DNA from: Nemertoderma westbladi
Taxonomy: Eukaryota; Animalia; Xenacoelomorpha
Direction of reading: 5' to 3'
NCBI GenBank assembly: GCA_032718475.1
Contig: JAUCBJ010008811.1
Coordinates: 54,820 to 118,819, forward strand
DNA length: 64,000 nucleotides
Both the position numbers and the translations under genes were made by a program. A model generated the notes under the pieces. The model had not been told where the DNA came from. It ran no database searches and saw only the letters and a program-made list of their open reading frames with translations. This document shows positions 776 to 23,920 of this stretch, in pieces. How positions within the stretch are numbered: position 1 is the stretch's first letter; every line of letters starts with the position of its first letter.

Positions 776-1036
776 TTCTGGAGTTTCGAATATTTGAACG
801 TTAATAATTTGGTCAATCCTAATTGAAATGTCACCAAACTTGGAAAACATCTCTGTGCAAAATTAACAACCTTATTCCATTTAAAGTTCGTTAAATCTGC
901 AATTTGTCCTATATCTAGGAGTTTGTATTTTTATGAATTCGTTTAGTTTTAACATTATTACCTCAAAATAAATATCAACCCCGCGAAACCTTCCCAAACT
1001 TATTATTATTATTTAGTTTTTTATTTTATAGCAAAC

Positions 1037-3289: not shown

Positions 3290-3408
3290 AATAAAAAAAC
3301 TAAATAATAATAATAAGTTTGGGAAGGTTTCGTAGGGATGGTTTTTATTTTGAGGCAATAATGTTAAAACTAAACGAATTCATAAAAATACAAATTTATT
3401 GTTCTTAC
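3284..3408 (-). other. Putative spliceosomal intron in the pPolB 5' UTR
   Basis: Minus strand reads CAG|GTAAGA at 3408 and TTTTATAG|CAAACATG at 3284. The same acceptor precedes the ATG at 1037, and TTTTCTAG|ATTCAAGATG precedes 30588. Confidence 0.55.
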
Positions 3409-4286
3409 CTGCAGATTGATTCGTGGTATTGGAAAAAGAAAATTGCTCGATTAGGAATAATAAGAAGGAAAATCAAATCACATTGATGTTATAAATGTTT
3501 GCAACAATATATTATTTATAATAATAAATGTATTATGTATAACAATCTTGAAGAAAATATAATATTATGTATAACAATAAATGTATTATAACTTTAAATA
3601 AAAAGTAAAATGGTCAATAATATTTTTGTAAGTAAAGTTCAAAGCGATGGATGGGGGTTTATAAGGGAAAGGGTAACCAATGAAAATAAAAGTGAAGCTT
3701 GTGGGAACCAATAGAAATAAAAAAGAGAGAGAGAGAGATGTGCTATTGGATTGAGCGAATAATAAACACATTTCATTGGGTTCATTAAATGTAAAACATT
3801 AGTTAGGATGGGAAATGGGGTGAATTGAGAAGCGGGGAGTGCGCCGGAGAAAAGTGTATGTAATGAATGGGCTGCTGCGTCAGAATGGGTATGTTAATTA
3901 ATGTTACACTAGAGTATCTGAACAAATATTTTAGGCATGGTATGGCAAGCGTGAGGGGTTATGCATTACTTCAAACAAAAAACTACAGTAACTAGTATAG
4001 AGAAGGTTGGGGGTTAATTTGACACATGGTGTTTGGGTACTGGCTTTGTCGTTGAGCTAATACTCGGAGTGTGCGATTAGGCTCGCGGACTGCTTCGCAA
4101 CACAATGCGAAAGAATGCAATCTATTGCAAGACCAGATGTTTATTCTAATTTCTCTGGCGAATTGACAATGGTTTACATGATAACGAAGCTGGAGTTTAA
4201 ATAATTTAAAATGTGTGGCAGGCCCACGTTGACATAGAGTATAACTCAACATGGGATTCCGTGGGATGCTTAATCCTTCACGCATG

Positions 4287-5225
4287 AGTAGTATGGTAAA
4301 CACCTGGAATAAAACAGCGTCTGCCATAGTCTACCATGTTAAAGAATTTGCCGAACGGCTCTTGCCCCGCCTACTTACTATGATTACCATTGTTGCCCCA
4401 CCCACTTACTATGGTTACCATTGTGCATATGTAACATATGTCACCACTGTGTATATGTGACATATGTGGTATAAGGCCAGTCCACAGACGGAAGTAATTT
4501 AATTAATTTGTGTCAATCGGTAGGCGTTTGACCTTGAACCGCAATAGGTAAAACCCAATATAGTAAGTGGGTTGCAGACGTTTGTTATAAAGTCTTTAAC
4601 ATGATAGACTATTACAGATGCAACAACTAAAAAAGGTGAATAAACACAGACTAACGGTGGCTACCAATATTGTCAAGCAATAAGTTGCGGGGGGCGAGCC
4701 GCGAAGTGAGAATAAGGTATTTATAATATTATTTTAATTTGATTATTCTACCTATGGGGCGAGCCATGAAGTGAGTGATAGCATCGAAGTAAGGTTATTG
4801 TATTTATACTTATCACTACGCAACAAGTTGTGGGGCGAGCCACGAAGTGAGTATAAGGTTATAGTATTTATAATATTATTTTAATTTGATTATTCTACCT
4901 ATGGGGCGAGCCATGAAGTGAGTGGTAGCATCGAAGTAAGGTTATTGTATTTATAATATTATTATTTTAATTTGATCATTTACTTAAATCCGGCACCGCT
5001 TTATTTAAAAATTTCTCCCACCACCCACCCGCTTATCCCGCTATCACCATCCGCCCAATCTTCTTCCTCATCCTCAACATCATTACCACCGCCACCATCA
5101 CCCAACATCCCCATCATTACTTCCAACATTGAAAAAATGGGGCGAGCCATGAAGCGAGTGAAGCCTTAGCATATGGGTGCCATTAATGAGTTGTGGGGCG
5201 AGCTACGACGAAGTAAGGTTATTGT
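4287..5225 (+). repeat. Left terminal inverted repeat of Polinton B
   Basis: Near-identical reverse complement of 20641-21587; contains iterated GGGGCGAGCCAYGAAG modules. Confidence 0.95.
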
Positions 5226-5382
5226 TATATGTGGAGGGGCGAGCCATGTCCTGAGCCTTCACGCAGCACGAAGTAAGCAAAGCCTTTAGCATGTAGGTAC
5301 TATTGTTGAATTTGTTGATTTTATTTATTAACGTTATTATATTACTTTAAATTATTATATTAATTATATTAAATTACTTACA

Positions 5383-5664
5383 TTAATTTTCGGTTGGAGG
5401 TGGCGTATGCGTTTCACCGATCATCCGCGGTGGGCACACACACATCGGTCGCCCCCCTGCGATCGGCAAGACGATCGCCGGGCGCGCTGGGGCCAAATCA
5501 TCATTATACCTGCAGTTTACCTCAATTGAGTGCATCACCCGCACCCTTTGTGCCCACATAACTCTTCTTAGATTCATCCTGTTCCATTTTTCTAAATTAA
5601 ATGTTGGAGGATGATGCTCGAAGGGTTGAACAACTAACGTCGGTTTTTTGCCGCCTTCAGCCAT
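5383..5664 (-). CDS. Small Pro-rich subterminal Polinton ORF, unknown function
   Basis: 93 aa. Positional homolog of 36328-36789 (MAEGGKKPT vs MAAGGDKPT; CVCPP vs CACPP). TATA-like TATATAA upstream at ~5750. Confidence 0.55.
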   Translation of the reverse strand: MAEGGKKPTLVVQPFEHHPPTFNLEKWNRMNLRRVMWAQRVRVMHSIEVNCRYNDDLAPARPAIVLPIAGGRPMCVCPPRMIGETHTPPPTEN

Positions 5665-6323
5665 TGAAATTGAAATTAATAATTAATAAATTAAGAATAA
5701 TATTAAAAATTAAAATAATAAAGTGATGCCGCTATCGTGATTCTCAATGTTATATAGCAAACTACAACAGAACTAATAACTACTTTGGTAAGGCTAATTT
5801 TCTATGCTTCGAAATTTATAGGAAGTTTTTCAAATAAGGCTAATTATCTATGCTTCGTATATGGCTTATTTCTTCTTTTGTGAAACCGGCCACATATGTG
5901 AGTAAATTGAACCCAGAGCTTTGATTGTCATTAGAGCGTTTAATTATTGTCTAATGCGTGTAGCGTGGATAGAGATTCTGGCCTTTGTGTTAACCACATA
6001 GGTTGGGCGGCAGATGCTTGGCATATAACGGAAGAGTTGGGTCCCAATGTGCTCTATACCCAATTATTATATTATTATTCCAGTTTTACCAGCCGCCCAC
6101 ACGTTAAAGAGACCCCCGCGAGGTTTCTGTGATTGACGATAAAAATTAAAAACGAATAGTGCTGCGTGAAGATCCCAACCCACGTCACTTACCGCGTCCC
6201 ATATATTTATTAAAAATATTGCTATTACTATATACCCAAGAAATAAATATTTATTATTAATATTAACGCTAATAATATGTTCACACACCGCAATTGAATA
6301 TACCCATAACCGAAATAAATAAA

Positions 6324-6770
6324 TTATTTTATTAATGAAAGTGTCCACAGTAATAACAATAAATCATTGTACCGCAAATTAGAGGTGAATATATTCATTG
6401 CTCCAGGATTTTTCGGCACCTTGGTTAAATAATACAGGCAAAATAGACCACACTGAGTCGATTGCGGCGCTTGAAACATTTTACGATTCCAAGTATGCCT
6501 TTGGGTACCATATTTATGCAGCCAATATGATATTTTTGGTGGCGGGCGGGGCTTTACCAAACGAATCTAAATAATAAGCAATTCTGTTAACCACGCGTAC
6601 GCAAGACCAGTGTTGTCCTGGTAGGCCTATACGTTGATTATTAATAATAAATGAATAATTTTGTTTATGCTTATTTTTTTTGTGTGTATTAGGTGTAATT
6701 GGTCGATTGCGTAAACACCGATGTATTCGGGCCCCACCGGGAATTTCGCTAATTGTATAGAGTCCAACAT
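6324..6770 (-). pseudogene. Adenain-like (C5) cysteine maturation protease, frameshifted
   Basis: GQHW, YLDSFG and QCG catalytic motifs split across frames; nearly identical to the intact copy at 35149-35586. Confidence 0.9.
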
Positions 6771-6864
6771 CTTAGCGTACGCGTATCATTAAAAGTTTAA
6801 GAGAATTTTTCTAATTCTGCAGGCGGTGTGGCTTCGCTTACTTTGTACTATGCGAGATCTTTAT

Positions 6865-8084
6865 TTATTCGGTTATTATTTCCTTGGCTTCTGAAATAGA
6901 TAGAAGAGCGTCATAGCTTGCCATTAATATAACGTTAATAGTGTTAACTAGCGCATTACTAAATTTCAGAATCAAATGTCCGCTTGTATGTATACTAGGT
7001 TGAATCTCATGGCTTTGATCGCCTCCGGCGGTAAGATCAAATACGATCAAAGGAAATTGGGTACGAAACCGTTCTGGTGTTAGCGAGCAAAATACGCCGC
7101 TCAAGCTCTTGAACACGTTCATTAAACTTTCGAATTCCAACATAAAATTGTTTTCCGGAAAGTTAGGGCGATATGGATACCCGTGTATAATACGGGAGTC
7201 GATGTTTAGTTCGGCATAATTTAAACCGAAATGGTTAAAATGTAGCGGATTACTGCTTAATTCCCCGTTGAAGCTGGCGTTGGTAAGCATTCCAATCAAA
7301 ATATACTTAGGTAATTTCCCTTGGATTATGTTCGATTCTGTATAACTGGACTGCCCGCCACCAATAGTGAAGGTTTTCACTTCTTGTTTTAACAAGTTAT
7401 AAATAAAGTCATTTTTTTGTGACCCCAACAAATGCGCACGCATAACCTCGGCATCAATCCTGTGGCGTTTTATTTTTAAATTAATATTCATGATTTCAAC
7501 TCTTGGGTTTACCAATCCTGCGGGGGGTTCAACTTTCAAAAAAAAATTATTCGATACTCGGTCTATACGAAGTCAAATGTTAATTCCTGGCGGCAGTAAT
7601 TTGTCCTGGCTTGTTAGGTCTAAAAAAATTGGGGCCACAATGAATTTAACATAATTCCCGCGAACGTCATTCTCAGTAGCGACTGGTACCCTGCCTAGAT
7701 TATTATTTGTATCTTCATAACCGCCAGCTCTTAAAATACTGCGTTTTTCGTTAGCATCTGTCAGCAGTAATGTCTGAAACGTAGACTTATAGGCGTAGAA
7801 CCCATTCGAGGTTTCAACTAGCTTTTCATTTAGGTATAACGAACAATTTTCAAATAGTGACCCACCGGGGTAATTGAGATGGTGGAGGGTTGTATCGTCG
7901 TTAGCCCTATTACCATCCCACGTAATTTTATATTTAATGTGAAATTTCGAATTCTTTAAATCAGTATATATTGCCTGGCATTCGCATCAAGAGTAGAAAT
8001 CGGGTAGATATCCAAAAAATGTGAAGATGTATATTCTCGCTGATTTGTTTTACTCGAGAATAATGATAATTCTAATTTACTCAT
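6865..8084 (-). pseudogene. Polinton major capsid protein (double jelly-roll), frameshifted
   Basis: Pieces MSKLELSLF...YPISTL; GGSLFENCSLYLNEKLV...YAYK; DLTSQDKLLPPG; GKLPKYILIGM...FNG...NPLHFNHF...FDLT, typical of Polinton MCP. Confidence 0.85.
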
Positions 8085-8091
8085 TGTTAAG

Positions 8092-8619
8092 TTACATAAA
8101 AATGTCGCGACATTTATTATTTCGCTTTTTACGTTTGCGCCCAACGTTCATACCCACACTTGGGTGTCGCCGTTTCCCGCTCCTCTTTTTTTTACTTTTC
8201 GGGTTTGTAAATTCATTGTATACCCGTTGGGCGATTTGGCGTGTCTTTGGATGAGGTTCTAACCGCGCGGCCACTTTATTTATCAAATCATCTGCTTTAC
8301 TGCGTAAAATACGTTTTCCTTCCGGTATTATGTATTTCCGCGCTACTCTTGCTGCTTTGGGGAGCGCTTTAGTTAGCACCTTTCTCCCTAACTTGCGCGC
8401 TAATATACCGAGGCCAGTTGTTAATATTCCGCGCCCACGCTGACGATTTTGGGTGTATTGCCGCCCGAATTTATTATTCTTATTATTCCATATACCAGTA
8501 GATGGGCCAAACCCTGGGAGAATGCTTCCACCCTTAAAAACGGGTATATCACTATAATTCCCACTTCCCAGTTGGATTTGTGGGGCGCTATATAATTTAA
8601 ACAAATTAGAATCTGACAT
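8092..8619 (-). CDS. Basic Arg/Lys-rich putative core (DNA-condensing) protein
   Basis: 175 aa, very basic, QLGSG and QRGRG motifs, C-terminal ...RDIF, immediately upstream of MCP as is usual in Polintons. Confidence 0.65.
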   Translation of the reverse strand: MSDSNLFKLYSAPQIQLGSGNYSDIPVFKGGSILPGFGPSTGIWNNKNNKFGRQYTQNRQRGRGILTTGLGILARKLGRKVLTKALPKAARVARKYIIPEGKRILRSKADDLINKVAARLEPHPKTRQIAQRVYNEFTNPKSKKKRSGKRRHPSVGMNVGRKRKKRNNKCRDIFM

Positions 8620-8741
8620 TATTATTATGAGTATTTATTATAACGTATAATAATAATTCTTTACTACATACGTATATGTGTAATCAACAAATAATATATG
8701 TACCACATAATAATACAATATAATTAATAAATATATATGCA

Positions 8742-9335
8742 TTAATTTGATGACAACCATTTCCCATAACCAACTGCGAGTTTCATAGAACAGTAATTAA
8801 AACAAGAATCTTTATCAGAATGGTAGGCACAATTTGTTATTCCCGAATAATCATGAAAAAGACATTTGGTGTCATAATCAATATATTTTTCGTTTATGCC
8901 GTACGTTTCTAGAAGTGTTCCATTCACATTAAATTCATTTTTTAAAATAAATAATTTCGGTATTCTGCGTATTAATATTTGAAACCCCAACTGTTTTTTT
9001 TCTTGTAACCATTCCTGTATGTACATTTTAAATGCGCTTTGGTCCATAAATCCGTAGCCAAAATTAATGTGATGCGTAATATTGGCGAGTTGTGTGAGAC
9101 GATCGTATTCGCTTAAACTTATAATTTTTGCGGGTGGACCATTAATAAACCATACGTTTTCTAATGATTTGATGGTAGTATTATAAGCCGCAAACTCTTT
9201 AAAATAAATGGTTGCAACGGCGTGTTGGCCGATCTGCGGATGATGCGTATAATATTGGAAATCTACTATTATTCCCGGGGTTTCCAGCGTCGGGTAATAA
9301 TCACGCCCATGGCTGCGGCTTAGAAATTTATCCAT
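8742..9335 (-). CDS. Conserved Polinton ORF, DnaQ/DEDD-exonuclease-like fold (probably degenerate)
   Basis: IIVDFQY...FKEFA...HHINFGYG...CLFH...C pattern resembling a recurrent Polinton accessory protein. Confidence 0.45.
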   Translation of the reverse strand: MDKFLSRSHGRDYYPTLETPGIIVDFQYYTHHPQIGQHAVATIYFKEFAAYNTTIKSLENVWFINGPPAKIISLSEYDRLTQLANITHHINFGYGFMDQSAFKMYIQEWLQEKKQLGFQILIRRIPKLFILKNEFNVNGTLLETYGINEKYIDYDTKCLFHDYSGITNCAYHSDKDSCFNYCSMKLAVGYGKWLSSN

Positions 9336-9409
9336 ATAGTCGCTATTACTTCAGATAATCAGATAAGAATAAATAATAAATAATTTACATCGATTAAATT
9401 GTGACTATC

Positions 9410-10213
9410 TCAATCAATTCGTATAAAATGAAGCGTCAATATTGAATTTCCATAATGAAAGCGCAACAAATTTCCCGAATCCCCAATCAACCGAACTCGT
9501 ATATAACGTAAATTAGATGTTGAATTAACTTTTTTATAGTAGACTTCCTGAACTTCTCGACTAATAATTTGCCCATATTCCCCTTCTATGGGTATGCCAC
9601 GTAACAGAGGGTATTCGCTATTGTCTACAAATTGAGGTTCGACGCAATTGATATGTATATTTATGTTGGGTTCCAGTATTTCGACAGCATTAGGATGCTT
9701 ATGGCAATTGTACTTATTATTTCGTGAATCAATCCTTAGCAAGTGATAATCCCCTACAGCATTTTGTACACACATAAAACCTTTGCCGTCAACCTCGTGT
9801 TCTGTTAATCCTAGGTAACCACCCAAACGTTTACTGACAAATATCGACAACTGTTTACCTTTAAAATGTATGGTTATATTACCGGAGCGTGCTCTATTAT
9901 CAATTTTATTAATTTGGCCTTTAATAAGGCTTTTGTTGAAGTACTCAATGATCCTTTCCAACGATAGGAAAGATCCTTCGGGGAGAGTAACATCTCTTGT
10001 AAACATTTTTTTATTTTTTATGGCCTTTATATAAATGTCGCTATTGTCATACCTGATACTAGATACGTACGTTATACCAGTTAAACCTACTAACCACTGC
10101 CCTCTAGCGAAAGGTAAAGGAATTTGCAAATTTGTTTGGAAATCGCTGGCGCTATTACGTGGGAATTCTATGGGGTTTGCGTTTGATGGTAGTACAACGT
10201 AATAACTGTTCAT
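9410..10213 (-). CDS. Polinton minor capsid protein (penton)
   Basis: YYVVLPSN...FPRNSASDF...WLVGL N-terminus; CVEPQFV...PLLR...YYK...IRVRL...LHF C-terminus. Confidence 0.85.
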   Translation of the reverse strand: MNSYYVVLPSNANPIEFPRNSASDFQTNLQIPLPFARGQWLVGLTGITYVSSIRYDNSDIYIKAIKNKKMFTRDVTLPEGSFLSLERIIEYFNKSLIKGQINKIDNRARSGNITIHFKGKQLSIFVSKRLGGYLGLTEHEVDGKGFMCVQNAVGDYHLLRIDSRNNKYNCHKHPNAVEILEPNINIHINCVEPQFVDNSEYPLLRGIPIEGEYGQIISREVQEVYYKKVNSTSNLRYIRVRLIGDSGNLLRFHYGNSILTLHFIRID

Positions 10214-10467
10214 TCTTGTAGTTTTTGTCGCCGTTGTTGTTTTTTGAGTTCTAGAACTAAAATTGTTTTACCTCCATGAAAGACTATATGCTTTCCTTTA
10301 TGGTCGCGAAGCGTTATACTAATTGTATCGAGCACTTTTTTATTTTTTAATTGTTTGTAATGTGTGTTTTTGAATTCCTGGTTGATGAATGAGTATGGTT
10401 CCCATTTCAAGGGGATTATCCGCAAAAGAGGCACCATCGAATGTCCTACGTGAGAAGATTCAATCAT
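10210..10467 (-). pseudogene. Second penton paralog, C-terminal remnant
   Basis: VGHSMVPLLRIIP...HYKQL...DTISITLRD..G...F..G..ILVL parallels the penton C-terminus; upstream sequence is decayed. Confidence 0.7.
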
Positions 10468-10857
10468 ATCTGTATATATAAACTATAAGTTATATAAGGT
10501 ATAAGTTTATTTTCTATATAGAGTTTATTATTATCACTCCACCGTACTCTGTCTCGCGAGAATCGCATCAAATAACTCAACAATCGTTTGGCTTTCTGGG
10601 ATGAAATTGTCACACCATCTAGCGGTTATATTATATTATTGCTTTTCTTATTATTATTATTATAAGTATCCATTAATAAAGTAGAAACTAGATACAACTT
10701 CTTAAAATTTCCGAGGCTAATCTCGTTATTTTTCATCGTTATATATCATTATTAATATATTAATACTATATACTAGAGTTCACGTTCATGGACCGATAAT
10801 AACCTAATTTTGGTGAAAGTCTAAACAAGGTGTGAAAATGGTTTTAGCGCGGCGTCG

Positions 10858-11567
10858 CTACTGAGGTATAGACTGAGCCTCAGGGCGTTGGTGAGGTGTG
10901 TTAGAGTTCATATTCGTGGGTTGATAAACAGTTTGCCCTAATGGGTTGAAAATATCACCCCTAACTCTTATACTATCATCCGTTTTTTGATGAAAGTCTA
11001 AGAGAAGGTGTGTGAATGGTTTTTGTGTGGCGTCACTATATGCTTGAACAATAAAATTGCTATTTTTTGGGTACACTTGCCGCGCTATATAGCTTATTTG
11101 ACTTGCGTCGCGGGGATTTTTTGTGAAAATACAATATTGGCATTTAGACTTCTAGTCCGTGTTTCCGCCCCTTTACTGAAGAAATTTTGTGTTATATAGA
11201 TAATGAAACAGGAAGTATGATGGCAGGTTTTTGTGAAGCTTTCTGTCAAACTCTCATCACTCTTACTTTCGCTTAACAAGTCGTCTATAATAATTAGATC
11301 GTTTTCGCGGAAAATAGAATTAATTTTTTGCGGTAAACCTTTGAATAGATGTGTTATACCTGGGAATTCTGGTGGGGTGGCGCCATAAAAGAATAATACA
11401 TGCTTCGGGGTTATATCAAAAACTAAATTTTTATTTTTTACAATTTTTGATACCAGCACTGTTTTTCCGGAAGAACTTGGACCCGCAATAATCATGGCCG
11501 AACCCATCTTGAAAGAGGCGTCGTTTGATGTGATTGGTTCCTGCGATATCGTCGGCTCTCGGGACAT
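10858..11567 (-). pseudogene. FtsK/HerA (A32-like) packaging ATPase, one frameshift near 11115
   Basis: Walker A IIAGPSSSGKT, Walker B IIIDDL, ITQNFF, RTRSLNA; continues in 10858-11076 (PFTHLLLDF...IRVR). Confidence 0.9.
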
Positions 11568-12046
11568 TGTTGATAGGTAGGCACTAAGTAGATGGGAAAC
11601 CTAGAAACTTGACGGTTGACGCGTGTACCAGAGGTACTAGGTCTATACCCCCGGCGGGATTGGGCTAATTTTCTGCCTCTTACAGCCGTTATTATGGGTG
11701 ATATTTTCTGATAAGCGTTAAGCCCACTCATTAAACCAGAGATTAGTAGATTTATAAATCCGCCCCTTTGCACCAATCGTTTACGATAAATTCGAATGGG
11801 ATACTTGGCTTTTGGTTTTTTAGCGATCTCGCGTATTGTTTTTTTATGGCGTTTTAACCTCACGATTGTTTGCTCAGGAATTTTTACGTTACCATTTAAT
11901 ACATTTAGAATAATATTAATTAGAAAACTTATAAGTTCGTCGGTACCGCCGACGCGTAAGAAGGTTTTTCTACGGTTGAGGGAGGCGTTAGATAAGAACT
12001 TTAAATCCCCCTCAAATTGTTTAATTAAAGCTTTGAGTGATTTCAT
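11492..12046 (-). CDS. Conserved Polinton basic protein with QxGGF hydrophobic motif (adenovirus pX-like)
   Basis: LNVLNGNV...LKRHKKTIREIA...RKRLVQRGGFINLLISGL; upstream of the ATPase. Confidence 0.7.
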   Translation of the reverse strand: MKSLKALIKQFEGDLKFLSNASLNRRKTFLRVGGTDELISFLINIILNVLNGNVKIPEQTIVRLKRHKKTIREIAKKPKAKYPIRIYRKRLVQRGGFINLLISGLMSGLNAYQKISPIITAVRGRKLAQSRRGYRPSTSGTRVNRQVSRFPIYLVPTYQQCPESRRYRRNQSHQTTPLSRWVRP

Positions 12047-12476
12047 TACATATATTAATAACTTATATAAACGAGAACAATAATTGTAAGTAATAAAACA
12101 CCACCACCGTTATAAATAGTATCGATTATATGCGTGGGTGGGGTTTTTCACGCGATAAAACCGAGCAATTATAGGAACCGGCACTCTTTAAAACCTAACA
12201 TCAATAATAATTAATAAAATACATTATATAACGCGAACAATGAATTAATTTTGACATACTGACTGACAGAAAGACCGACAAATAGACAGATAGACTAGAT
12301 TTATGTAAATATAAACCGACATCAGAAATGAAATTGACGCCCTTGACAACCTAAGACTACCGATAAAACACGTTATATATAATGTGAATAATGTTAATAT
12401 CCGCGTTTATTTAAAAACCTAACGAGATCCCACCGGACAAACCTAAAACTGGCACCAGAAATGAAAAAATTAAATA

Positions 12477-13037
12477 TTAAATATTTCTACCTAAATGACT
12501 ATCTAAATTACCGATAAAATTCAAAAACTTTGGAAAAAATACTCGAAATATCCCGGGTCTTGCCATACACACAACATTTCGTGTGTAAAAAACGCAAAAT
12601 GTTATGATATTAGAACTAGTTTTACCCCGACGATAAAACTGCACAAGAATATTATTAAATATCTCCAGCTCATATTTCACCTCCACATTATAATAATTAT
12701 CTAAAAAATGAAACCCAACCGTTTTCATTAATTTGCTATAGTCTATGTCTAGATTGTTAATAATATAAGTTTGGCTATTGATTGAAATAAAAGTTAGTTT
12801 ATAATCAGTATGCTTATATATATACTTAATAATTTTTTTTATTTTAGGCGATTTACCGAGTACAGTGACCTTACCGCTCGGGAAAAAGAGACACGTCCAT
12901 CCGCAAATTTTGGCGATATATTGAAAAGGCTTTAAGATGAGTTTTCCATTTCGAATTCGTTTAGCCAGCACATCGAATGATATGCACCCATCAACCAACC
13001 TCAAACTTATATTACTGTTGACAACACTAAAAGACAT
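12477..13037 (-). CDS. TATA-binding-protein (TBP)-like protein
   Basis: 186 aa, the size of the TBP core. Two pseudo-repeats: TCLFFPSGKVTVLG (cf. TBP LIF.SGK.V.TG) and KYELEIF...FCVFYTRNVVC (cf. SYEPELF...LIFVSGKVVLTG). Confidence 0.72.
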   Translation of the reverse strand: MSFSVVNSNISLRLVDGCISFDVLAKRIRNGKLILKPFQYIAKICGWTCLFFPSGKVTVLGKSPKIKKIIKYIYKHTDYKLTFISINSQTYIINNLDIDYSKLMKTVGFHFLDNYYNVEVKYELEIFNNILVQFYRRGKTSSNIITFCVFYTRNVVCMARPGIFRVFFPKFLNFIGNLDSHLGRNI

Positions 13038-13046
13038 CGCAATCCG

Positions 13047-16000
13047 CTATTCTATAATGGGCGGCATATAAAGCTTAGGGGCGGGCGCTTTACGATCCAA
13101 ATGTGTTTTATAATGGCCGTAAGGTAGACTTTCATTAGTCGATGTGTAGTACCTTTTATCTTCCCACAGTGTTAGCGATTTTTTTCTTTGTGAAACGGTG
13201 TATATTTTATGTAAATTAGATTGAAACCTTTGACTGTATTCATAATGCTCGCTAACCTCGTTATATACTTTTAAATATGATTCGTGGGAGAGTTTCTTTT
13301 TTATAACCATTTTTCCTACGCCTTTAGCGGCACATTGTGGAACTGACCCCCCACGAAAGCTATAACATTTTGGTCTAAGTAAAATAACCTGGTCAAACGG
13401 GATAGACTTCCCTTCATCCTTTAAATATCTATATTTCCCTTTCTGTTCTACTGTATACAACGGATGTGTAATAGGATAATTTGAACAGTCTAAAACTTTT
13501 TTTGATTGTAACGCAGATAAAAATTGGTGTTGGGATAAACCAACACAATGTAAAAAAAAGAATCCGTGTCCCCACCTAACAAATTTATACTACAATTTAA
13601 TTCGGCTTCCAGGGGCTTTAATTTCTCGTAGAAGAAACTGCAATAATCTAACTTCGACAGGTCCAATACAGCTTGCCCTAAAAAAATAGGTTTATGCAAA
13701 CAAACCGCAGTCTTAGATAGGACATGACCCGATAATGAATCAGTGAACATAATTAAATTTTCGTGATTCGGCTTGGATAATAATAAGTCACATTTCTCGA
13801 TTGAATTACATAAGCGAAATGAGACACGGTCCCGTATATTCTCCATGCTTTTCCCGAAAAGCGCGTTATTTGTTCCTTTGTGAAACTTATCATAAAAGTC
13901 ATTGCTTGCTATTTTTCTTTGCTGGGTGTTATATTCAATAAAATCCTTAAAAATGTAACCTTGCTTAAATTTAATAAGTTTATGAACTTTAATCAAGCGC
14001 ATACCATGATCAATATAAAAGCGCAATAATTTTAGATGCACACCGTACTCATACTTATCAAATTGGGTTAACATCAATTTTTTTGCTGGGCTATTGAAAA
14101 TTTTATCACCATTATAATGTCGCCAAAGACTTTTCATGTGTGGACTGAGATACCTACTATCGAGTTTAATATGCTCCGGTGCAAATGGAAGCTCGGCTGT
14201 GGCATCATGAATAGTCATTGGGTATTCAAGGTCTACAATTGCGAAGTATCCATATATTTCGTCAATTTCCAGACTCATGATATCGACACTATCAACATCC
14301 AACCATTCAAAGTCAGAATAAGGAAGTTTCTCCGACAAAGAACCGCTATATAAACTGTTGAAATCTAAATTATATAAATGAGCTTCGGGTTTATTAGGGT
14401 CGTATGTTTCTGTGCCTGGTATATTCGCATTTGCCATGTGAAGGTTGGTGTAAGAAACTCCGCCCCTAATGGAATTTTCGAATGTTAAATACATTTCATG
14501 GTCTGCAAGTAGACGAATATGTGACTTGGAAAATCTCAAAGCCGCGTCCCAACTAACCCCCGCCATCGTGTAATAGTTCGACACCTCAAGCGAATAATGT
14601 TTAGTACAATATGCGCGAAAATTTTCAAAAATATCGGCTAGCAGCAACACGTCAAGATGTAAGTAAGCTTCCAAATAATCAAAAAGTGTCTCACATTGAA
14701 ATTGCTCCCACGAAAGATGTGCAAATGTATATTCTTCAGGGCTAATAGATGATAATGTTAATTCACTGTAAAACTCTTTTGGATGCGGTAATTTAGTATC
14801 CCCCAATTTACTTAAGGAATTGACATATTCGTAAGGAAAAACTGACTTACGGCGTAAAATTTCGTTGGTAACATTTGGATATAATTTTCTCATTTGCTTC
14901 ACGGTGTGTGGAATAACGGTTGTTAAATCTGACACATCTTTTGTCAAAAACCCAGCCAAAGCAGAAAGGGAAAATCCCATAAACACGAATGAATCAATAA
15001 ACTGTATAGTTATTGATTTGCTGGTTGGGAGCCCTCTTACGTCCTTTTCTGGAATAGCATAACCAAGAACGCTAAGTGCTTCTGACATTGGAATATCGAT
15101 GCGGAGTGAGATATATCTTTCAGTATTTTTTGCAATGGTTTCAATGTTCCAATTTTTATATTTACTACTGGCAAACCCTTTTTGTAAAATTAAATGTGAA
15201 TCATAAAAAAAAAATTATGACAGACAACTGGGAATAGGTGACGTTTAACACTTAATTGTTTATTACAGGAAATACACGCCGCACCAATGAAAGCCCCGTT
15301 GTAATGGTTGTGATGCATCACACTTGGATTTATATCTTCCCGAAAAAATGATTTACAATTAAAGCAATTTGTGGTACGCATATAAGCTTGGTATTGTGTG
15401 TGATCCAGGTGTTTGGGGTGGTGTGTGTTAAAGGTAGACCATTCATAACACTTAAATAAATCAAAAACCAGACTATCAATAAAATTCTGTACCGAGTTAT
15501 TATCGATATTTTGTCTAAATGTAGACAAAAAATAATTTGGGGGGTTAATTAATTCACCGTTGGAGACAATCAAATATGAAACAGCCGACGGGAGATGTTC
15601 GGCTATATAATATTTTTTTACATTATTTGTTGGGGCTAGTACCACTTCGAAATCCATATATACTATGAAAGGTGTACTGACAGACTTATAGTAATTAGTA
15701 AAACGTAAATTCAGTTTAGATGGCATCTCCTCTATTTGGCGCCCGCCTTGCCAACACCCTAATCTATGGCGTTCTAACGCATTTGGACTGTAGAAACCAC
15801 GAATACACCGCTCACAACGATGACAATGATGGTCGCTATTGCCTTCCCCACGACTATTAAATAATCTATTTAAGTTACAAACCCCGACGATGTGATTTGT
15901 TGAGGTTAAATTTTGACGTTCAATAAGCAATAAATTTAGCAATCTTTTACCTTCAGCTTTTTTAGCGCTCGGTTGCCGTAGAAAGGAAATTTTTTCACTA

Positions 16001-17060
16001 CTTCTATCAAAATACAATAAATTTATTAAATAATTTGGATTATTTTTTTCAAACTTTAGAATATTTAGTTTCCATGATAGGGTAGAGTCTAATTCGCTTA
16101 AATTAAAAAACCCTAAATACTGATTATAAGAACTTTGGCGTGAAACATGGCGCAGTGTGTGATCATCCGATATATGTTTTGAAAATTCTGCTGTCAGGAC
16201 CACCCACTTAAAACATTCACCTTCATTACACGGTACATTTATTATACAATGTTTATTTTTTAATTTTGTCGGGATTGATTGGTTGGCATCACCGCTATGT
16301 CCAAAACGATATACCGATCGCAAGTATGACGCAATAGTAAGTTTGATGCGCGATAGAGTTACAAGTTTCCAGCCGCTACCCCGCCTAATAAATTGCGATA
16401 TTTTTTCACCGATATGGGAAATGACTTGATGATTCGTCAAAATCCGAGCTATTTTCAATATAATTATCTGTACCGATCGAAGTAAAATGGAATTCTTCTT
16501 CTAGAGTATAATTAGCATCATCACGTTCCATTATCACTGAAGCAATTACCCACACTTTATAAAACATATCAATAAAAGCCGGTGCCGCCGTGTTAAAAGC
16601 GCGCGAAGCATATGACACATTATGGGTATATTCCTGAACGCGTGATTCGTGACATGTTTTTGAGAGATAAAAACCTTCGTTGGGTGTATCTGAACTGTTT
16701 GTAATGCTTACAGGCGAACCAATGTTGAGATCCGGTTGAAATGTCGGTTCTGATTGTTTTTGGTTATGTTTGCATTTGCGGGAATTGTAATGGTTTTGAT
16801 GGCAACTATGTTTGATATATGAATCGAAGTTTTCAAAATCATCAGAGCATGTCGGGCAGGATAGCGTGTAACCGCAGTAGGTGTAATTCGGGCGAGACAA
16901 CCCGCAACATATATTACTGTGAAATATTGCTATTCTTTCAGAAGTAGTTCGGCAATTACAATTATCGCAAACATACCCATCGAAATGTGCGCGTAAATGC
17001 CGTAAATAATTTTTCTTAAGTATAGTACAACCGCAAAAAACGCAATTAATCTCCATCATT
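13047..17060 (-). pseudogene. Protein-primed DNA polymerase B of Polinton B, split into 4 ORFs by frameshifts
   Basis: GSGW, CFKW, YMDFE, EndoVII-like HNHYNG..C..CN, FPYEY, DVLLLADIFENFR, SIRGG, LDFNSLY (motif A), K..NNALFGK (B), GDTDSF (C), RPKCY, AKGV. Confidence 0.95.
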
Positions 17061-17352
17061 ATAATTATTATTATTACGATTATAATATATTTATTAACGT
17101 AGGTACAGAAAACATATTTACAATATGCCGATGAAAGAGATGCGGCAGATTTTATGTAGATAAATATATCCAATACCCAGTCAACCAGCCACCCACGCTA
17201 GAAACCGTTTAACCAACCAAAATTTACTGAACTGACATTATCCTATTTATATGCTCTATTAACTATGTTGTATAATCGCGTGTAAGAGTATTTAAATAGT
17301 ATTGACATGTGTCACCACCCGAGTTTGGTGTTATGCGTTTAATGTCACATAT

Positions 17353-17985
17353 TTAATATGCGCGGTAAAATGTCGAATTAATCTCTTCCCCATACGGCGT
17401 TAAATTCGTCGGTAAAAGCCCAAAATAATCATCTGAATAAATATTAGAAATGTAGAGTATTGCCGCATTACATTGTTGGCATATAAGCTGGCATATTTTA
17501 TCGCCCGATGTTACAACGTATTCCTTAGATGTGTTGTTAATCAATATAATTACAAGTTGATCTATATTACCGCGCGCAACGCCGGAATCAACCGCACATT
17601 CTGCAACATCGATGCCAATTTTTGTCAAGCTAAAAGTCGGTGTAATTCTTCCAAAATAATTGGCGGGTAAATATATTTTAACACCCGTCTCAATTAACAT
17701 CCGTGAGTGCGGCTCTATTGTTCTATTCACGGCGCTATATATGTCAATCCCAGCTGGGCTATATGAACCGCATACAGGTGCCCGAGCTGCCGGGCTTAAC
17801 AATTCAATTTTAATTGGAATAATTGAATTAGGACCGCGGTAACTATTTTCAGCTTGTATTATTGGAAACATTTTTTTATTATGGTGTATTTTACCTAAAA
17901 AAATTCCTAAAAGAAAGGTAACAATGAATAATATATTTGAAAAAATGATCTTATCTATAGACTCAAGCTGCCCCAGTATTGTCAT
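17353..17985 (-). CDS. dUTPase-derived protein with N-terminal transmembrane segment, degenerate catalytic motifs
   Basis: AGIDIYSA (motif 1), FGRITP, GDKICQLI (motif 4). RSG replaced by TFS, motif-3 Tyr absent, no RGxxGFGSTG. Hydrophobic IIFSNILFIVTFLLGIFLG. Confidence 0.85.
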   Translation of the reverse strand: MTILGQLESIDKIIFSNILFIVTFLLGIFLGKIHHNKKMFPIIQAENSYRGPNSIIPIKIELLSPAARAPVCGSYSPAGIDIYSAVNRTIEPHSRMLIETGVKIYLPANYFGRITPTFSLTKIGIDVAECAVDSGVARGNIDQLVIILINNTSKEYVVTSGDKICQLICQQCNAAILYISNIYSDDYFGLLPTNLTPYGEEINSTFYRAY

Positions 17986-18189
17986 GTTGCTTAATCAATA
18001 ATATTTTGACCAATGGATATATTTATAATGGGTGTGTCTTTAAAACGCCGTTCGCGTGCCGCAATCGTTCGTTTTTAGTAAATGATTACAGAAAAATATC
18101 TGTTGTGAGAGAAAGTTTGCGATCCCGGCATTAAATTAAATTCGCTCATGCTTAAAATTATGAAACTTCTAAGAAGCTACACAGTTAAT

Positions 18190-18485
18190 ACAGTTGACGT
18201 CAATCAATTTAACCGTGAGTAGTAATATTCTGCGGAATTTTGAGGGTGTGTCTATAAAAATTTATATAGGCCGCATTAATCGCCGCCGCAAGCTGTTACC
18301 ACTTACGTCAACCAATTTAAGCGTAAATAAATATTTTCCTCGAAATTTATAGGAAGTTTTTCAAAAAAAATTCTCTCAGGACAATAGCGATTAATCCGGT
18401 TGAGTGGTTAAAATATACCCGTTTTCCCGATAGCCCATCATTATATTATAAATACGTCGTAAAATACTTTATTTTGTCATTCGGG
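18190..18485 (+). promoter_or_regulatory. Putative Pol II promoter of the PC4-like gene
   Basis: TGACGTCA at ~18195, TTACGTCA plus CCAAT at ~18303, TATAAATA at ~18447 with a TCATT initiator-like site ~30 bp downstream. Confidence 0.45.
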
Positions 18486-18579
18486 TTAATTCATTATTTC
18501 ATATTTTTCGCACATTGTATAGCGCAATATTATTGTATTTTTACACTTAATTATTAATATTTCACAAAATTTGTTGATG

Positions 18580-19869
18580 GAATCTGCGAAACCATCACAA
18601 CCAAAAATGATGTCATTAAGCGGTAGCTCTACTGATAGCACGCCCGCCCCATACGTATCGGTGATTACAGGTAAGAGTGTGTGGGGCCTCGAGTGTTTGG
18701 GTGAAGGAATAGAAATAAAAGCATTTAACGGGAAATACGTTCGATTCAGCCGTTGGGGTGATACAAAAGGACACAACGTCGTGCAAGAATCGGTAAGTCT
18801 TACTTACCAGAACATAAGATTCCTGTTTGACTTCCTCAATTATAATAAAATAGCCGTTGAATATTACAAGGAATACACCAGAGGCAATTTGCTTATAACA
18901 CCAATAAATCATGCGTACTTACGCATTGGGAAAAACGGTGCATCAATTTTTATCTCGCGAAAAATTCTAGATGTCTTACAAAGCATCTACGGCAAAGTCG
19001 TTCTTTCCCGTATTGAACCAAAAAAGAAGGAAATTCATGATGAGAATTTTATGGAGTTCGAAGATTGTGGGTACATTGGATATATCTACGACTTTGAAGG
19101 GCAACGATTTGTCGGCGTTTGGGAAGTGGATGATATAGGTAGACAGCGGAAGGGTGTTCTATATTACGATGGGTTGAATCTCAGAGCGGATGAATTCTGT
19201 TTGCTCGACTTTAACATAGATAATAATGTTAAGGAGAATATCGACGAGGTTAGTGTAAGGTACACATCGATCGTTAACGAAAACGGGATATATTTGTCCC
19301 ACAACTTCGACACCAAGGCTATTTTCATCCCTCGAAACAACGCAAATGTCAAGATAATTAAGGAATTACAGAAGTACGTGGGCCACGATATTCCGTCTGG
19401 GTGTGAGTTTCTACCGATTAAAAAGTTAGTTGTTGAGGCTGCGATTGATGAATTAGTGGACGAGGAACTAATGAAAGTGGAAATGCCGGACAACGCTAGT
19501 CAGCTGAAGACGTCCGAAGCAGTAAAAGTCACTGCTAAGAAAATGGATGAGAAAAAAATCTGGTTGCCCGCGATTGCAGAAAATGAGCGGGTAGACAGCG
19601 CTGAAAAAAAGAATGATTATAAGGATATTGATACCCTCGTTGGAGGTGTGAGCGCTCAGATGAAGATGAAAACACCTAAAGCCATGAAAGAACAAGCGCT
19701 TAAGCGAAAAATTGATCTCATCGTGAATAAAACACCTAGCTATGAGTATGAAGATATCAGCGACTTTGAAGAGGACATCGTCAATGATACGGATGATGGC
19801 GAAGACATTTGCAATGAAATCGAGACTAATGGGCAACCTCAAATAAAGAAGAATAAACATTCAGTGTGA
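18580..19869 (+). CDS. Protein with tandem PC4-like ssDNA-binding domains and acidic/basic tail
   Basis: IEIKAFNGKYVRFSRW...VSLT and YIYDFEGQRFVGVWE...RKG...LNLRADEF resemble PC4 (F.G...V.IR....KGI.L). NLS-like KRK/KKNK tail. Confidence 0.55.
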   Translation, partial: ESAKPSQPKMMSLSGSSTDSTPAPYVSVITGKSVWGLECLGEGIEIKAFNGKYVRFSRWGDTKGHNVVQESVSLTYQNIRFLFDFLNYNKIAVEYYKEYTRGNLLITPINHAYLRIGKNGASIFISRKILDVLQSIYGKVVLSRIEPKKKEIHDENFMEFEDCGYIGYIYDFEGQRFVGVWEVDDIGRQRKGVLYYDGLNLRADEFCLLDFNIDNNVKENIDEVSVRYTSIVNENGIYLSHNFDTKAIFIPRNNANVKIIKELQKYVGHDIPSGCEFLPIKKLVVEAAIDELVDEELMKVEMPDNASQLKTSEAVKVTAKKMDEKKIWLPAIAENERVDSAEKKNDYKDIDTLVGGVSAQMKMKTPKAMKEQALKRKIDLIVNKTPSYEYEDISDFEEDIVNDTDDGEDICNEIETNGQPQIKKNKHSV

Positions 19870-20101
19870 ATCTTCGAGCGGTAGAAACTTTATTATATAA
19901 ATAGACCATGTTCGTAGGCGGTGTCGCCGCAACGAGTCGGGCATGGTTAAATTATTATTATTATTTTGTGGTGGTAAATTATTTGTTGGTATAATGAATT
20001 ATCGATTGAAATAAATATTATATAAATTTATTTATAGTATTATACATTATTATACACATATTTATATATTTATTACTTTATTTTATTTATTATACACGGA
20101 T

Positions 20102-20554
20102 ATGTTGGGGGAAAATGAACTTGTGGTGGATGAAGTAGATATGGATGTGGAGGAAGAGGTGGAAGAGGTGGAAGATGTGGATGATGTGGATGTGGCGGCT
20201 GAAATAGCGAAGGAGAATGAAGCAATATTGGTGGCTATGTATGCGAGGGAGAAAGAAGAAGCGCGGTTGGAGAGGTTGTTAAATCCAAGAAATGAATGGG
20301 AGGAGATAGAGAAGAACCATTATTTGGAGGAAGAGGCGAGAAGGAACAGCGCGTGGGGTGAAGATTGGGAGTTGGAGATGGAGGCTGAGGGGGTTAGGAG
20401 AGCGAGGGAGGCTGAGAGGTGTGCACAGGAGAAGGTGATGAAAGAAAGGATTGAGATGTTAGAAGGAATGATGGGGATGTTGGGTGATGGTGGTGGTGGT
20501 AATGGTAATAATGTGGAGGATGTAGATAGCGAGGATAGCGGGATAAATGGGTGA
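20102..20554 (+). CDS. Highly acidic helical protein with AWGEDW motif
   Basis: 150-aa ATG-initiated ORF, last gene before the right TIR of B. Confidence 0.6.
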   Translation: MLGENELVVDEVDMDVEEEVEEVEDVDDVDVAAEIAKENEAILVAMYAREKEEARLERLLNPRNEWEEIEKNHYLEEEARRNSAWGEDWELEMEAEGVRRAREAERCAQEKVMKERIEMLEGMMGMLGDGGGGNGNNVEDVDSEDSGING

Positions 20555-20640
20555 GGTGGTGGAAGAAATTTTAAAATAGTAATGGTGATGGATTTAAGTA
20601 TAATAATCAAATTTGTTGGTATAATGATAATATTATAAAT

Positions 20641-21587
20641 ACAATAACCTTACTTCGTCGTAGCTCGCCCCACAACTCATTAATGGCACCCATATGCTAA
20701 GGCTTCACTCGCTTCATGGCTCGCCCCATTTTTTCAATGTTGGAAAGAATGATGGGGATGTTGGGTGATGGCGGTGGTGGTAATGATGTTGAGGATGAGG
20801 AAGAAGATTGGGCGGATGGTGATAGCAGGATAAGCGGGTGGGTGATGGGAGAAATTTTTAAATAAAGCGGTGCCGGATTTAAGTAAATGATCAAATTAAA
20901 ATAATAATATTATAAATACAATAACCTTACTTCGATGCTATCACTCACTTCATGGCTCGCCCCATAGGTAGAATAATCAAATTAAAATAATATTATAAAT
21001 ACTATAACCTTATACTCACTTCATGGCTCGCCCCACAACTTGTTGCGTAGTGATAAGTATAAATACAATAACCTTACTTCGATGCTATCACTCACTTCAT
21101 GGCTTGCCCCATAGGTAGAATAATCAAATTAAAATAATATTATAAATACCTTATTCTCACTTCGCGGCTCGCCCCCGCAACTTATTGCTTGACAATATTG
21201 GTAGCCACCGTTAGTCTGTGTTTATTCACCTTTTTTAGTTGTTGCGTCTGTAATAGTCTATCATGTTAAAGACTTTATAACAAACGTCTGCAACCCACTT
21301 ACTATATTGGGTTTTACCTATTGCGGTTCAAGGTCAAACGCCAACTGGTAGACACAAATTAATTAAATTACTTCTGTCTGTGGACTGGCCTTATACCACA
21401 TATGTCACATATACACAGTGGTGACATATGTTACATATGCACAATGGTAACCATAGTAACCATAGTAAGTGGGTGGGGCTACAATGGTAATCATAGTAAG
21501 TAGGCGGGGCAAGAGCCGTTCGGCAAATTCTTTAACATGGTAGACTATGGCAGACGCTGTTTTATTCCAGGTGTTTACCATACTACT
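20641..21587 (-). repeat. Right terminal inverted repeat of Polinton B
   Basis: Reverse complement of 4287-5225 with few substitutions and a 9-bp duplication near 21450. Confidence 0.95.
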
Positions 21588-21640
21588 CGCATGCCATACC
21601 AAAAACTATGGTCCTGTTTGAAATGTTAAGGTGGACCTTT

Positions 21641-21676
21641 CTATATAAATAAAACCATGTAAAGTTAGATCATTAT
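21641..21676 (+). promoter_or_regulatory. TATA box and initiator-like site upstream of the GTSF1-like gene
   Basis: CTATATAAATA at 21641 and TCATT ~28 bp downstream. Confidence 0.5.
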
Positions 21677-21749
21677 CTCTAAAAAACATTAAGTGAAGTT
21701 TTTCAAAGTTTTTTAAAAGTAAATCTTAATAAATTTGTCTTTTGTTACT

Positions 21750-22046
21750 ATGGAATACTTTATATGCCCGTATGATGCCACACACAGAATTCATTCGGAG
21801 AAATACGTCAAGCATCTAAGAAAATGCCGCAAGAACTTTTCCGACCAAAAAATGGTTCAGTGTCCCTTTGAAGTTGCGCAGAGCTTTAGAGAAGCTGAAA
21901 AGGACCACCATCTACGATTTTGTGAATACAGGAACAGGAACTCAATTTTTGAGATATTAAAAGAAGAGAAAAAAGAAAAAAAAGTAGAGAAGAAAGGAGA
22001 AGAAATTGAATGTTCGATGGCGTGGGGAGAAGAGGTGTGGGATTGA
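21750..22046 (+). CDS. GTSF1/Asterix-like protein (tandem CHHC U11-48K-type zinc fingers plus acidic Trp tail), 98 aa, intronless
   Basis: CPYDATHRI......HLRKCRKN...CPF........HHL..C matches GTSF1 CPYD.NH.I......HL.KCRKN...CPF...H......HH...C; ends AWGEEVWD. Confidence 0.88.
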   Translation: MEYFICPYDATHRIHSEKYVKHLRKCRKNFSDQKMVQCPFEVAQSFREAEKDHHLRFCEYRNRNSIFEILKEEKKEKKVEKKGEEIECSMAWGEEVWD

Positions 22047-22193
22047 TGTGATGATGCGATTCTCCGCACTCTAGTATAAATTGTTATGTAATTATAATTG
22101 GATGTCCGGTGGTGTGGGGAGAAGAGGTGTGGGATTGATGTGATGATGCGATTCTCCGCACTCTAGTATAAATTGTTGTGTAATTATAATTGG
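22024..22193 (+). repeat. ~90-bp tandem duplication of the GTSF1-like stop/3' UTR
   Basis: TGGGGAGAAGAGGTGTGGGATTGA...TAATTATAATTGG occurs twice. Confidence 0.9.
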
Positions 22194-22486
22194 TGTATAA
22201 ATTGTATGTACGGTGCAGCCATGTATATTGTATTGTACAGTGTCTATTGTATTGTATATTTCATTTGCTGTAGTACAATTTATTCATCTCGCGTCCCTAT
22301 CTGATTGATTTGTGTCAAATTAAATTGCCTTTGGCAACATTATTTGATACAAATCGATTGATTAAACAATTAATTAATTGTTTAATCGACCAATTAATTA
22401 ATTGTTTAATTAATTAATGACCTACTTAACACCCAAGGTGCGAAGTAGGACCAAACTGTCGCCAAGAGTGGCAAACCATTACTACT

Positions 22487-23920
22487 AGAATCTCTACCTG
22501 ATTCTACTATTGATAATTCATTAATAAGTGCCTAAATAATCATCCTAACAATGGCGATGATCTGAGAACTCAAACTGATCCTGGGTACCGAGGTGGTTGT
22601 CTTTGTGTCTCTCAACCTCCCCTGTATAATTAACTCCTTAACTCTTTACAAAACAGAATCTCTACCTGATTCTACAATTGATAATTCATTAATAAGTGCC
22701 TAAATAATCCTCCTAACAATGGCGATGATCTGAGAACTCAAAATGATCCTGGGTACCGAGGAGGTTGTCTTTGTGACTCTCAACCTCCCCTGTATAATTA
22801 ACTCCTTAACTCTTTACAAAACAGAATCTCTACCTGATTCTACTATTGATAATTCATTAATAAGTTCCTAAATAATCATCCTAACAATGGCGATGATCTG
22901 AGAACTCAAACTGATCCAGGGTACCAAGGAGGTTGTCTTTGTGACTCTCAACCTCCCCTGTATAATTAACTCCTTAACTCTTTACAAAACAGAATCTCTA
23001 CCTGATTCTACAATTGATAATTCATTAATAAGTGCCTAAATAATCCTCCTAACAATGGCGATGATCTGAGAACTCAAACTGATCCTGGGTACCAAGGAGG
23101 TTGTCTTTGTGACTCTCAACCTCCCCTGTATAATTAACTCCTTAACTCTTTACAAAACAGAATCTCTACCTGATTCTACAATTGATAATTAATTAATAAG
23201 TGCCTAAATAATCCTCCTAACAATGGCGATGATCTGAGAACTCAAACTGATCCTGGGTACCGAGGAGGTTGTCTTTGTGTCTCTCAACCTCCCCTGTATA
23301 ATTAACTCCTTAACTCTTTACAAAACAGAATCTCTACCTGATTCTACAATTGATAATTCATTAATAAGTGCCTAAATAATCCGCCTAACAATGGCGATGA
23401 TCTGAGAACTCAAACTGATCCTGGGTAATGAGAAGGTTGTCTTTGTGTCTCTCAACCTCCCCTGTATAATTAACTCCTTAACTCTTTACAAAACAGAATC
23501 TCTACCTGATTCTACAATTGATAATTCATTAATAAGTGCCTAAATAATCCTCCTAACAATGGTGATGATCTGAGAACTCAAAATGATCCTGGGTACCGAG
23601 GAGGTTGTCTTTGTGTCTCTCAACCTCCCCTGTATAATTAACTCCTTAACTCTTTACAAAACAGAATCTCTACCTGATTCTACAATTGATAATTCATTAA
23701 TAAGTGCCTAAATAATCCTCCTAACAATGGCGATGATCTGAGAACTCAAACTGATCCTGGGTACTGAGGAGGTTGTCTTTGTGTCTCTCAACCTCCCCTG
23801 TATAATTAACTCCTTAACTCTTTACAAAACAGAATCTCTACCTGATTCTACAATTGATAATTCATTAATAAGTGACTAAATAATCCTCCTAACAATAGCG
23901 ATGATCTGAGAACTCAAACT
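22487..23920. repeat. 168-bp satellite, ~8.5 copies
   Basis: AGAATCTCTACCTG recurs at 22487, 22655, 22823, 22991 ... 23831; internal hairpin GGAGGTTG/CAACCTCC. Confidence 0.97.

Follow-up and report, generated by a model that had tools for sequence, protein, structure and literature searches.

Does a Polinton of Nemertoderma westbladi carry a genuine homolog of GTSF1/Asterix, a core cofactor of the piRNA pathway, and, if so, would the product oppose or assist the silencing of its carrier? The question arose from a preliminary description of positions 54,820 to 118,819 (forward strand) of contig JAUCBJ010008811.1 in assembly GCA_032718475.1, a stretch of 64,000 nt hereafter called the window. 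A short open reading frame (ORF) near a Polinton terminus was read there as a captured, streamlined decoy, one that keeps the hook for PIWI proteins but may not potentiate silencing. Our analysis upholds a Polinton-borne GTSF1 homolog under selection, whereas the signs by which it had been taken for a decoy fail. The features on which the argument rests are collected in Table 1.

Table 1. Features of the GTSF1-like gene, its carrier (element A) and the nested element B, in window coordinates
Feature	Position	Strand	Basis
5' part of pPolB gene, high-copy sibling of A, opposite orientation	922..3272	+	
Element A pPolB: upstream region and first two codons, cut at junction 3272/3273	3273..3394	-	
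Element A spacer, pPolB start to B insertion site	3395..4280	.	
B target-site duplication, 6 bp, left copy	4281..4286	+	
Polinton B, 17.3 kb: pPolB pieces, dUTPase, ATPase, capsid-like and protease-like frames, many broken	4287..21587	-	
Maelstrom-like ORF of B, not part of A	8742..9335	-	
B target-site duplication, 6 bp, right copy	21588..21593	+	
TATA box and Inr-like motif	21642..21674	+	Match to consensus alone
GTSF1/Asterix-like gene, 98 aa, intronless	21750..22046	+	ORF, Pfam, PDB, fold
CHHC finger 1: C6, H12, H22, C26; His15 at mouse R26; K18, K25, K28 at R29, K36, K39	21765..21827	+	
CHHC finger 2: C38, H54, C58; position 44 Gln here, His in most copies	21861..21923	+	
92-bp tandem duplication of tail-coding sequence	22004..22187	+	
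Acidic Trp tail AWGEEVWD	22020..22043	+	
Polinton A terminal repeat, ends in AGTAGTA terminus	22222..22486	-	Contig depth, terminus pattern

With respect to identity, the compact intronless ORF that had been proposed runs through its 98 codons without interruption and closes on the acidic Trp tail, as claimed; the promoter motifs, which are consensus matches only, lie upstream in the arrangement described, a TATA box at 21642 with an Inr-like TCATT 28 bases downstream. The profile search that had been suggested returned a single Pfam family, zf-U11-48K, at an E value of 1.3e-6, which passes the curated cutoff and bears out the homology. Both CHHC fingers are present in GTSF1 spacing, and they are the only two motifs so spaced in all six frames of the window. 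Among PDB entries, mouse GTSF1 (6x46) matches best, at E=1.2e-10, and the GTSF1 chain of 9nhb reaches 5e-8, with U11-48K well behind at 0.009. A structure model built from 24 sequences has a pLDDT of 91 to 96 across both fingers (residues 1 to 60), and the fold search with it ranks 6x46 and 9nhc (the SIWI-piRNA-target-GTSF1-Maelstrom complex) highest. By PDB E values, fold ranks and Atlas, the protein is nearer to GTSF1 than to U11-48K or TRM13. The ORF is a genuine GTSF1/Asterix-family gene.

An exhaustive search recovered 278 relatives, the best at an E value no lower than 1e-10, and among 20 homologs that were looked up those with names are animal host proteins, none bearing a viral name; short ones without a name (P0020, P0047, P0100, P0152 and P0053) come from contigs of 10 to 49 kb. 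The viral structure library gave nothing with an E value below 0.07 for the model, and a word-index search with the ORF gave 36 candidates, none significant. In contig collections that hold few animal Polintons, no related loci were found among viral contigs for the ORF, the homolog P0152, the Maelstrom-like ORF of B or two polymerase pieces, nor among metagenome contigs for the ORF or the homolog P0053, and the terminus pattern had no match. A tree built by quick search only from 141 finger regions (the query and 140 of the 150 hits) leaves the query outside every supported group and points to no donor; the query's terminal branch is 1.0, against a median of 0.32, and its identity to any homolog is at most 42%. 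The tail-coding sequence is repeated downstream of the stop codon by a tandem duplication. No poly(A) tract follows the stop, in disagreement with the retrocopy, flanked by poly(A) and a target-site duplication, that had been considered as a contrary outcome.

Which element carries the gene? The window has three matches to the terminus pattern AGTAGTA(N)TGGT, at 4287+, 21587- and 22486-, where 0.12 would be expected. Two of these occurrences are the ends of B, whose terminal arms of about 940 bp are 97% alike and whose flanks bear the same 6-mer. The third is the end of A, whose terminal repeat begins AG(TAGT), the same terminus motif as both B ends, common to many contigs. The GTSF1-like gene lies outside B: it starts 157 bp beyond the target duplication, and the TACTACT terminus at 22486 lies 440 bp past its stop, the distance given in the preliminary description.

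We compared the locus with contigs at least 80% identical to the window from three DNA runs (X1, X2 and X3), which come from two samples under the same species label and contain 65 to 71% of sampled words. Two contigs in X2 and two in X3 extend leftward as far as 21588 and then match the window just left of B's target duplication (16 of the last 18 letters, read by eye). These contigs join both flanks of B without B, and a site lacking B therefore exists; B jumped into A. Once B is removed at its duplication, the gene stands divergent from a pPolB start at 3273-3394 (-), as had been claimed. This start is 94% like that of the plus-strand pPolB piece (at 922-1042), which has a DNA_pol_B_2 match in Pfam. 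Contigs of X2 and X3 continue past 3272 into different sequence, and the plus-strand piece therefore comes from a sibling copy. A's own pPolB in the window consists of its first two codons, after which the junction follows, and its other end, its target-site duplication and its core genes (integrase, capsid, ATPase and protease) are not in the window. The link from polymerase to gene within A rests on the window and the empty B site, with zero contigs joining both. Polinton A carries the GTSF1-like gene, and the nested B does not.

Two observations concern the sibling sequence itself. Within 922-3394, two sibling copies that run in opposite orientation are joined head to tail, and the family of the plus-strand piece is very uniform and of high depth (1 to 8 differences per 160 to 345 bases in X2 and X3); the GTSF1-like gene is much more varied among its copies.

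The same runs also show other copies of the gene. Across 21400-22500, X1 to X3 yield many short contigs with 0 to 28 differences per 107 to 196 bases, and several distinct variant classes of the gene occur within one sample. Contigs bridge the 3' region of the gene into the terminal repeat in all three runs (X1 record 8, spanning 22148-22314 at depth 436; X2 record 15; X3 record 24). Outward of 22222, the summed depth is tens of times to about a hundred times greater, and inward of it other contigs diverge; 22222-22486 is therefore a terminal repeat common to many more elements. A fourth run, X4, covers 7 of 30 bins, in the terminal repeat only. Depths in X3 are 64 to 355 for gene contigs and 34 for one from the flank (805-922), depth being no copy count. 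The GTSF1-like gene is multicopy with divergent variants, its dispersal being read from contigs, all from one species; the single-copy gene that had been considered as a contrary outcome is at odds with the several distinct variant contigs in each run.

These variants also made the proposed dN/dS comparison among copies feasible. The 40 best supported of 76 variants include 27 in the ORF, at codons 6 to 58. Classed singly, 18 are synonymous and 9 are not, for an expected synonymous share of 0.18 to 0.29. The excess has a P value of 4e-8 to 5e-5 and corresponds to a rough omega of 0.11 to 0.20, figures to be read with the caveat that sites are not independent on a tree. Variants at C6, C26 and C58 are silent, and the only listed change of a zinc ligand is at codon 44. 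None of 12 indels shown (of 15) falls in the ORF, and 8 fall in the 90 bp upstream. Because 18 of 27 variants are synonymous where 18 to 29% were expected, the protein is under purifying selection and not evolving neutrally, a result that covers codons 6 to 58, the tail codons having no variants among those shown.

Is the selected protein crippled, as a dominant-negative decoy might be? The preliminary description had pointed to a missing first His in finger 2, to a His in place of mouse R26 and to the streamlined form. Finger 1 of the window copy is complete. Finger 2 does have three of four ligands there, with Gln at position 44, but this is a minority state: most copies have all four, and His is coded by 1024/1455 of the summed contig depth at codon 44 in X1, 443/481 in X2 and 860/860 in X3. 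In mouse GTSF1, RNA binding requires R26, R29, K36 and K39, and PIWI binding requires W98, W107 and W112 (PMC9385479, excerpt). By alignment in 6x46 numbering, the residue after H-x-I at the R26 site is indeed His (H15), and R29, K36 and K39 align with K18, K25 and K28, so that three of the four mouse RNA-binding positions of the finger 1 ridge are basic. The His is a poor sign of a decoy: R26 is Arg in only 31 of 150 homologs (His in 6), and the GTSF1 chain of 9nhb has Glu there, whereas the other three sites are basic in 139, 142 and 126 of 150. The tail Trps are W92 and W97, the latter 39 residues past the last Cys; in host proteins this spacing has a median of 40 and quartiles of 36 to 44 (101 of 140 two-finger hits with the motif).

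Compactness is no better a mark, as lepidopteran host proteins of 99 to 105 aa have the same two fingers and a terminal acidic-Trp ending. The silkworm Gtsf1L binds Vreteno and BmAgo3 by its terminal Trp (PMC10711660, excerpt) and is an activator of BmAgo3 (bioRxiv 2022.06.30.498350, excerpt). A dominant-negative decoy would be expected to have lost a zinc ligand or the RNA-binding residues throughout its family, and no such loss was found among the contig copies and 150 homologs. Because Gln44 is a minority state, the R26 site is Arg in a minority of homologs, the other ridge residues and the tail spacing are kept and compact host proteins are alike, the protein looks complete rather than crippled, and its predicted anatomy bears no mark of a broken decoy. 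Antagonism is plausible from the selfish context of the gene, not from lost residues.

Compared to GTSF1/Asterix itself (mouse 6x46 and the 9nhb/9nhc chain), the protein has the two CHHC fingers at the same spacing, the finger 1 ridge and an acidic Trp about 40 residues past finger 2; it differs in being encoded without introns in a multicopy mobile element, in lacking an N-terminal leader and a long tail and in its His at the R26 site. It also resembles paralogs of the silkworm Gtsf1L type (P0185, P0186, P0191, P0192 and P0195), which have about 100 aa and two fingers and end in acidic-x-Trp-Asp. Those, however, are host proteins, and no tree support ties the query to any homolog, these five not being in the tree.

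GTSF1 and Maelstrom are the two partners of the PIWI* complex (PMC13269885, excerpt; PDB 9nhc title), and a candidate for the second lies in the nested element. For the ORF of B at 8742-9335, Pfam matches Maelstrom weakly (E=0.04), with an Atlas Maelstrom cluster at 0.91 on rank 15; closer Atlas neighbors, at 0.93, are unnamed clusters including Preplasmiviricota. It had no PDB or word-index matches, and its single-sequence model is unusable (pLDDT 34). Two Polintons at one locus thus appear to hold homologs of both PIWI* partners, the Maelstrom one as a candidate with a weak match.

B holds further observations. Just inside its right terminal repeat, at 20102-20554 (+), lies an acidic 150-aa ORF with AWGEDWE. 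When the other 322 frames of at least 50 aa were compared with the GTSF1-like tail, this motif scored highest; 39 of 5,000 shuffles reach its score, and the comparison was post hoc. Its product is possibly a fingerless PIWI or Tudor hook. B also carries a dUTPase and a 430-aa ORF without assignment (18577-19869), and Pfam found no integrase-like frame among those scanned within 4287-21587, despite the 6-bp target duplication.

Considering these data, we propose, with somewhat less than even confidence, that the intact GTSF1 paralog competes for host PIWI complexes and thereby blunts silencing of the element. In this scenario, a Polinton family would have captured an animal GTSF gene, which would be expressed from its own putative TATA/Inr promoter. 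Finger 1 would bind RNA, and the tail would bind PIWI or a Tudor scaffold. As GTSF1 joins PIWI after target engagement (PMC13650160), and does so with Maelstrom (PMC13269885, excerpt), the product would dock on target-bound host PIWI complexes in place of host GTSF1. The occupied PIWI or Tudor slot would then give less than full output, and silencing of the element would be blunted, this inhibitory net effect being the most speculative step.

The mode of action would be that of a mismatched paralog and not of a broken protein. GTSF paralogs are PIWI specific (PMC9385479; bioRxiv 2022.06.30.498350, excerpt): activation fails in the pairs GTSF2 with MILI and BmGtsf1 with BmAgo3 (PMC9385479). Because of this selectivity, a mismatched paralog could inhibit by failing to activate the wrong PIWI. 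Furthermore, zinc-ligand mutants of the fingers keep Piwi binding and fail to rescue (PMC9539491), and a nonproductive binder is therefore a workable design. We count in favor of the competitor the mael-labeled genes of Polintons, the Maelstrom-like ORF of B, the long end branch and the identity of at most 42%. Against it, no sequence feature separates the protein from a working activator, the Maelstrom call for B is weak and concerns a gene in another element, and, as has been argued (PMC6719617, excerpt), an element that blocked the piRNA pathway broadly should reduce the fertility of its host and thereby harm itself.

The inverse, that the protein is a working PIWI activator, is in our estimate rather unlikely and yet the closest competitor of this proposal. 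Here, the element would supply GTSF1 where or when the host does not, for self-restraint, latency or the silencing of competitors such as B. Nothing that is known to be required has been lost: three of the four residues are basic, most copies have both fingers, and the tail has the host spacing. The form is as compact as that of the lepidopteran proteins of about 100 aa, the silkworm Gtsf1L is an activator (excerpt cited above), and self-restraint is common among transposons (PMC6719617, excerpt). Boosting a pathway that targets the element would, however, bring it little gain, the protein has diverged widely from the host GTSFs that are known, and a copy without the finger 2 ligand is still found in X1 and X2, at measurable depth. 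If it is an activator, an element would be arming the host silencing machinery, which would be just as unexpected.

We consider it improbable that the protein was repurposed away from PIWI, serving as an RNA or tRNA binder or as a ligand of a Tudor scaffold or RdRP in the element's own cycle. GTSF1 does bind tRNA (PMC9539491), nematode GTSF-1 has moved from PIWI to RRF-3 (PMC13650160), and silkworm Gtsf1L uses its terminal Trp-Asp to bind Vreteno (PMC10711660, excerpt). Nevertheless, the RNA ridge and Trp tail are kept here at the spacing of a PIWI cofactor, whereas the nematode protein lost the basic ridge (PMC9539491).

Still less credit can be given to the view that the gene is a passenger evolving neutrally, or a retrocopy or duplicate of a host gene, that happens to lie among Polinton debris. 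Such an origin would accommodate the nested and broken elements heaped up at the locus, the incomplete state of A, the fact that no contig covers the whole unit and the fact that no relative was found in other genomes (word index, viral and metagenome contigs); the multiple divergent variants, the 3' region bridged to the terminal repeat, the empty B site, the absence of a poly(A) tract and purifying selection speak against it. Finally, piRNAs from the captured sequence might knock down host GTSF1 at the RNA level, as TART-A's captured piece of nxf2 sets a precedent (bioRxiv 2020.02.20.957324, excerpt), but the synonymous excess and the intact frame indicate selection at the protein level, and copies differ among themselves by up to 28/162 bases, which makes this very improbable.

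Returning to the competitor for host PIWI, the locus suggests a wider hypothesis, which we consider possible but doubtful: Polintons counterattack the piRNA pathway by capturing PIWI* factors, Maelstrom-like in some, a full GTSF1 here and perhaps the hook of B. Maelstrom-like genes on Polintons are already known in print. A MAEL label occurs at least four times on adintovirus maps in the supplement of PMC8502044 (excerpt), and mael-labeled Polinton genes appear in bioRxiv 2025.02.07.637071 (excerpt). This accessory gene of Polintons and adintoviruses, for which B has a candidate, is likewise a homolog of a PIWI* partner; unlike the gene described here, it belongs to a different protein family, is widespread and is labeled in gene maps. 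The cargo of nematode Mavericks (proteases and kinases; excerpts of bioRxiv 2022.07.12.499685 and PMC11131425) provides another example of host-type genes spread by Polintons, although it is not part of a silencing machinery aimed at the element.

Element-encoded antisilencing, which we propose here by inference, is known from VANC, mir820, the Athila6 siRNA (PMC6719617, excerpt) and TART-A/nxf2 (excerpt cited above). Those cases are plant proteins or act at the RNA level, whereas the present candidate is a protein homolog of a core piRNA cofactor. A 2019 review knew of no transposon-encoded antisilencing factor directed at the piRNA pathway (PMC6719617, excerpt), and later cases may have escaped us. 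Hypothetical transposon-encoded mimics have been proposed to explain the fast evolution of the pathway (PMC6367137, excerpt). If our proposal is true, GTSF1 capture would represent this long-postulated mimic of a piRNA-pathway protein. The small, well-folded GTSF1 homolog that selection maintains in this Polinton offers existing slicing and co-IP assays a concrete candidate.

The preliminary description was not aware of GTSF1 having been described for Polintons, and our literature search agrees: the matches listed contain no report of a Polinton-borne or virus-encoded GTSF1, subscription journals, repeat databases and bioRxiv supplements being outside its scope. The term GTSF is absent from the searched text of PMC8502044 (with its supplement), PMC11131425, PMC10748475 and bioRxiv 2025.02.07.637071, and none of the matches listed for Polintons names Maelstrom or zf-U11-48K.

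The remainder of the window holds several further elements. A third Polinton remnant, C, occupies 30505-38035. Its polymerase is 66% like the A-family piece, and its protease region and terminal repeat are 85 to 92% like those of B; C is possibly a recombinant or a deletion derivative. TBP-like ORFs, similar to each other, directly follow pPolB in both B (12477-13031, -; Pfam TBP E=0.054) and C (34672-35055, +; E=0.069). One and the same 168-bp tandem array follows the terminus of A (22487-23920) and the truncated terminal repeat of C (38066-38428), and short pPolB-like and other Polinton-like remnants lie after the array at 23934-24015 and 25940-26011. At 43736-48540, about 100 copies of a 48-bp unit form an array in which long frames are open, followed by 21-bp arrays at 49031-50706. 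Retroelements are represented by a piece with PHD and endonuclease domains at 28086-29057 and by a Pao-type peptidase piece at 52055-52927.
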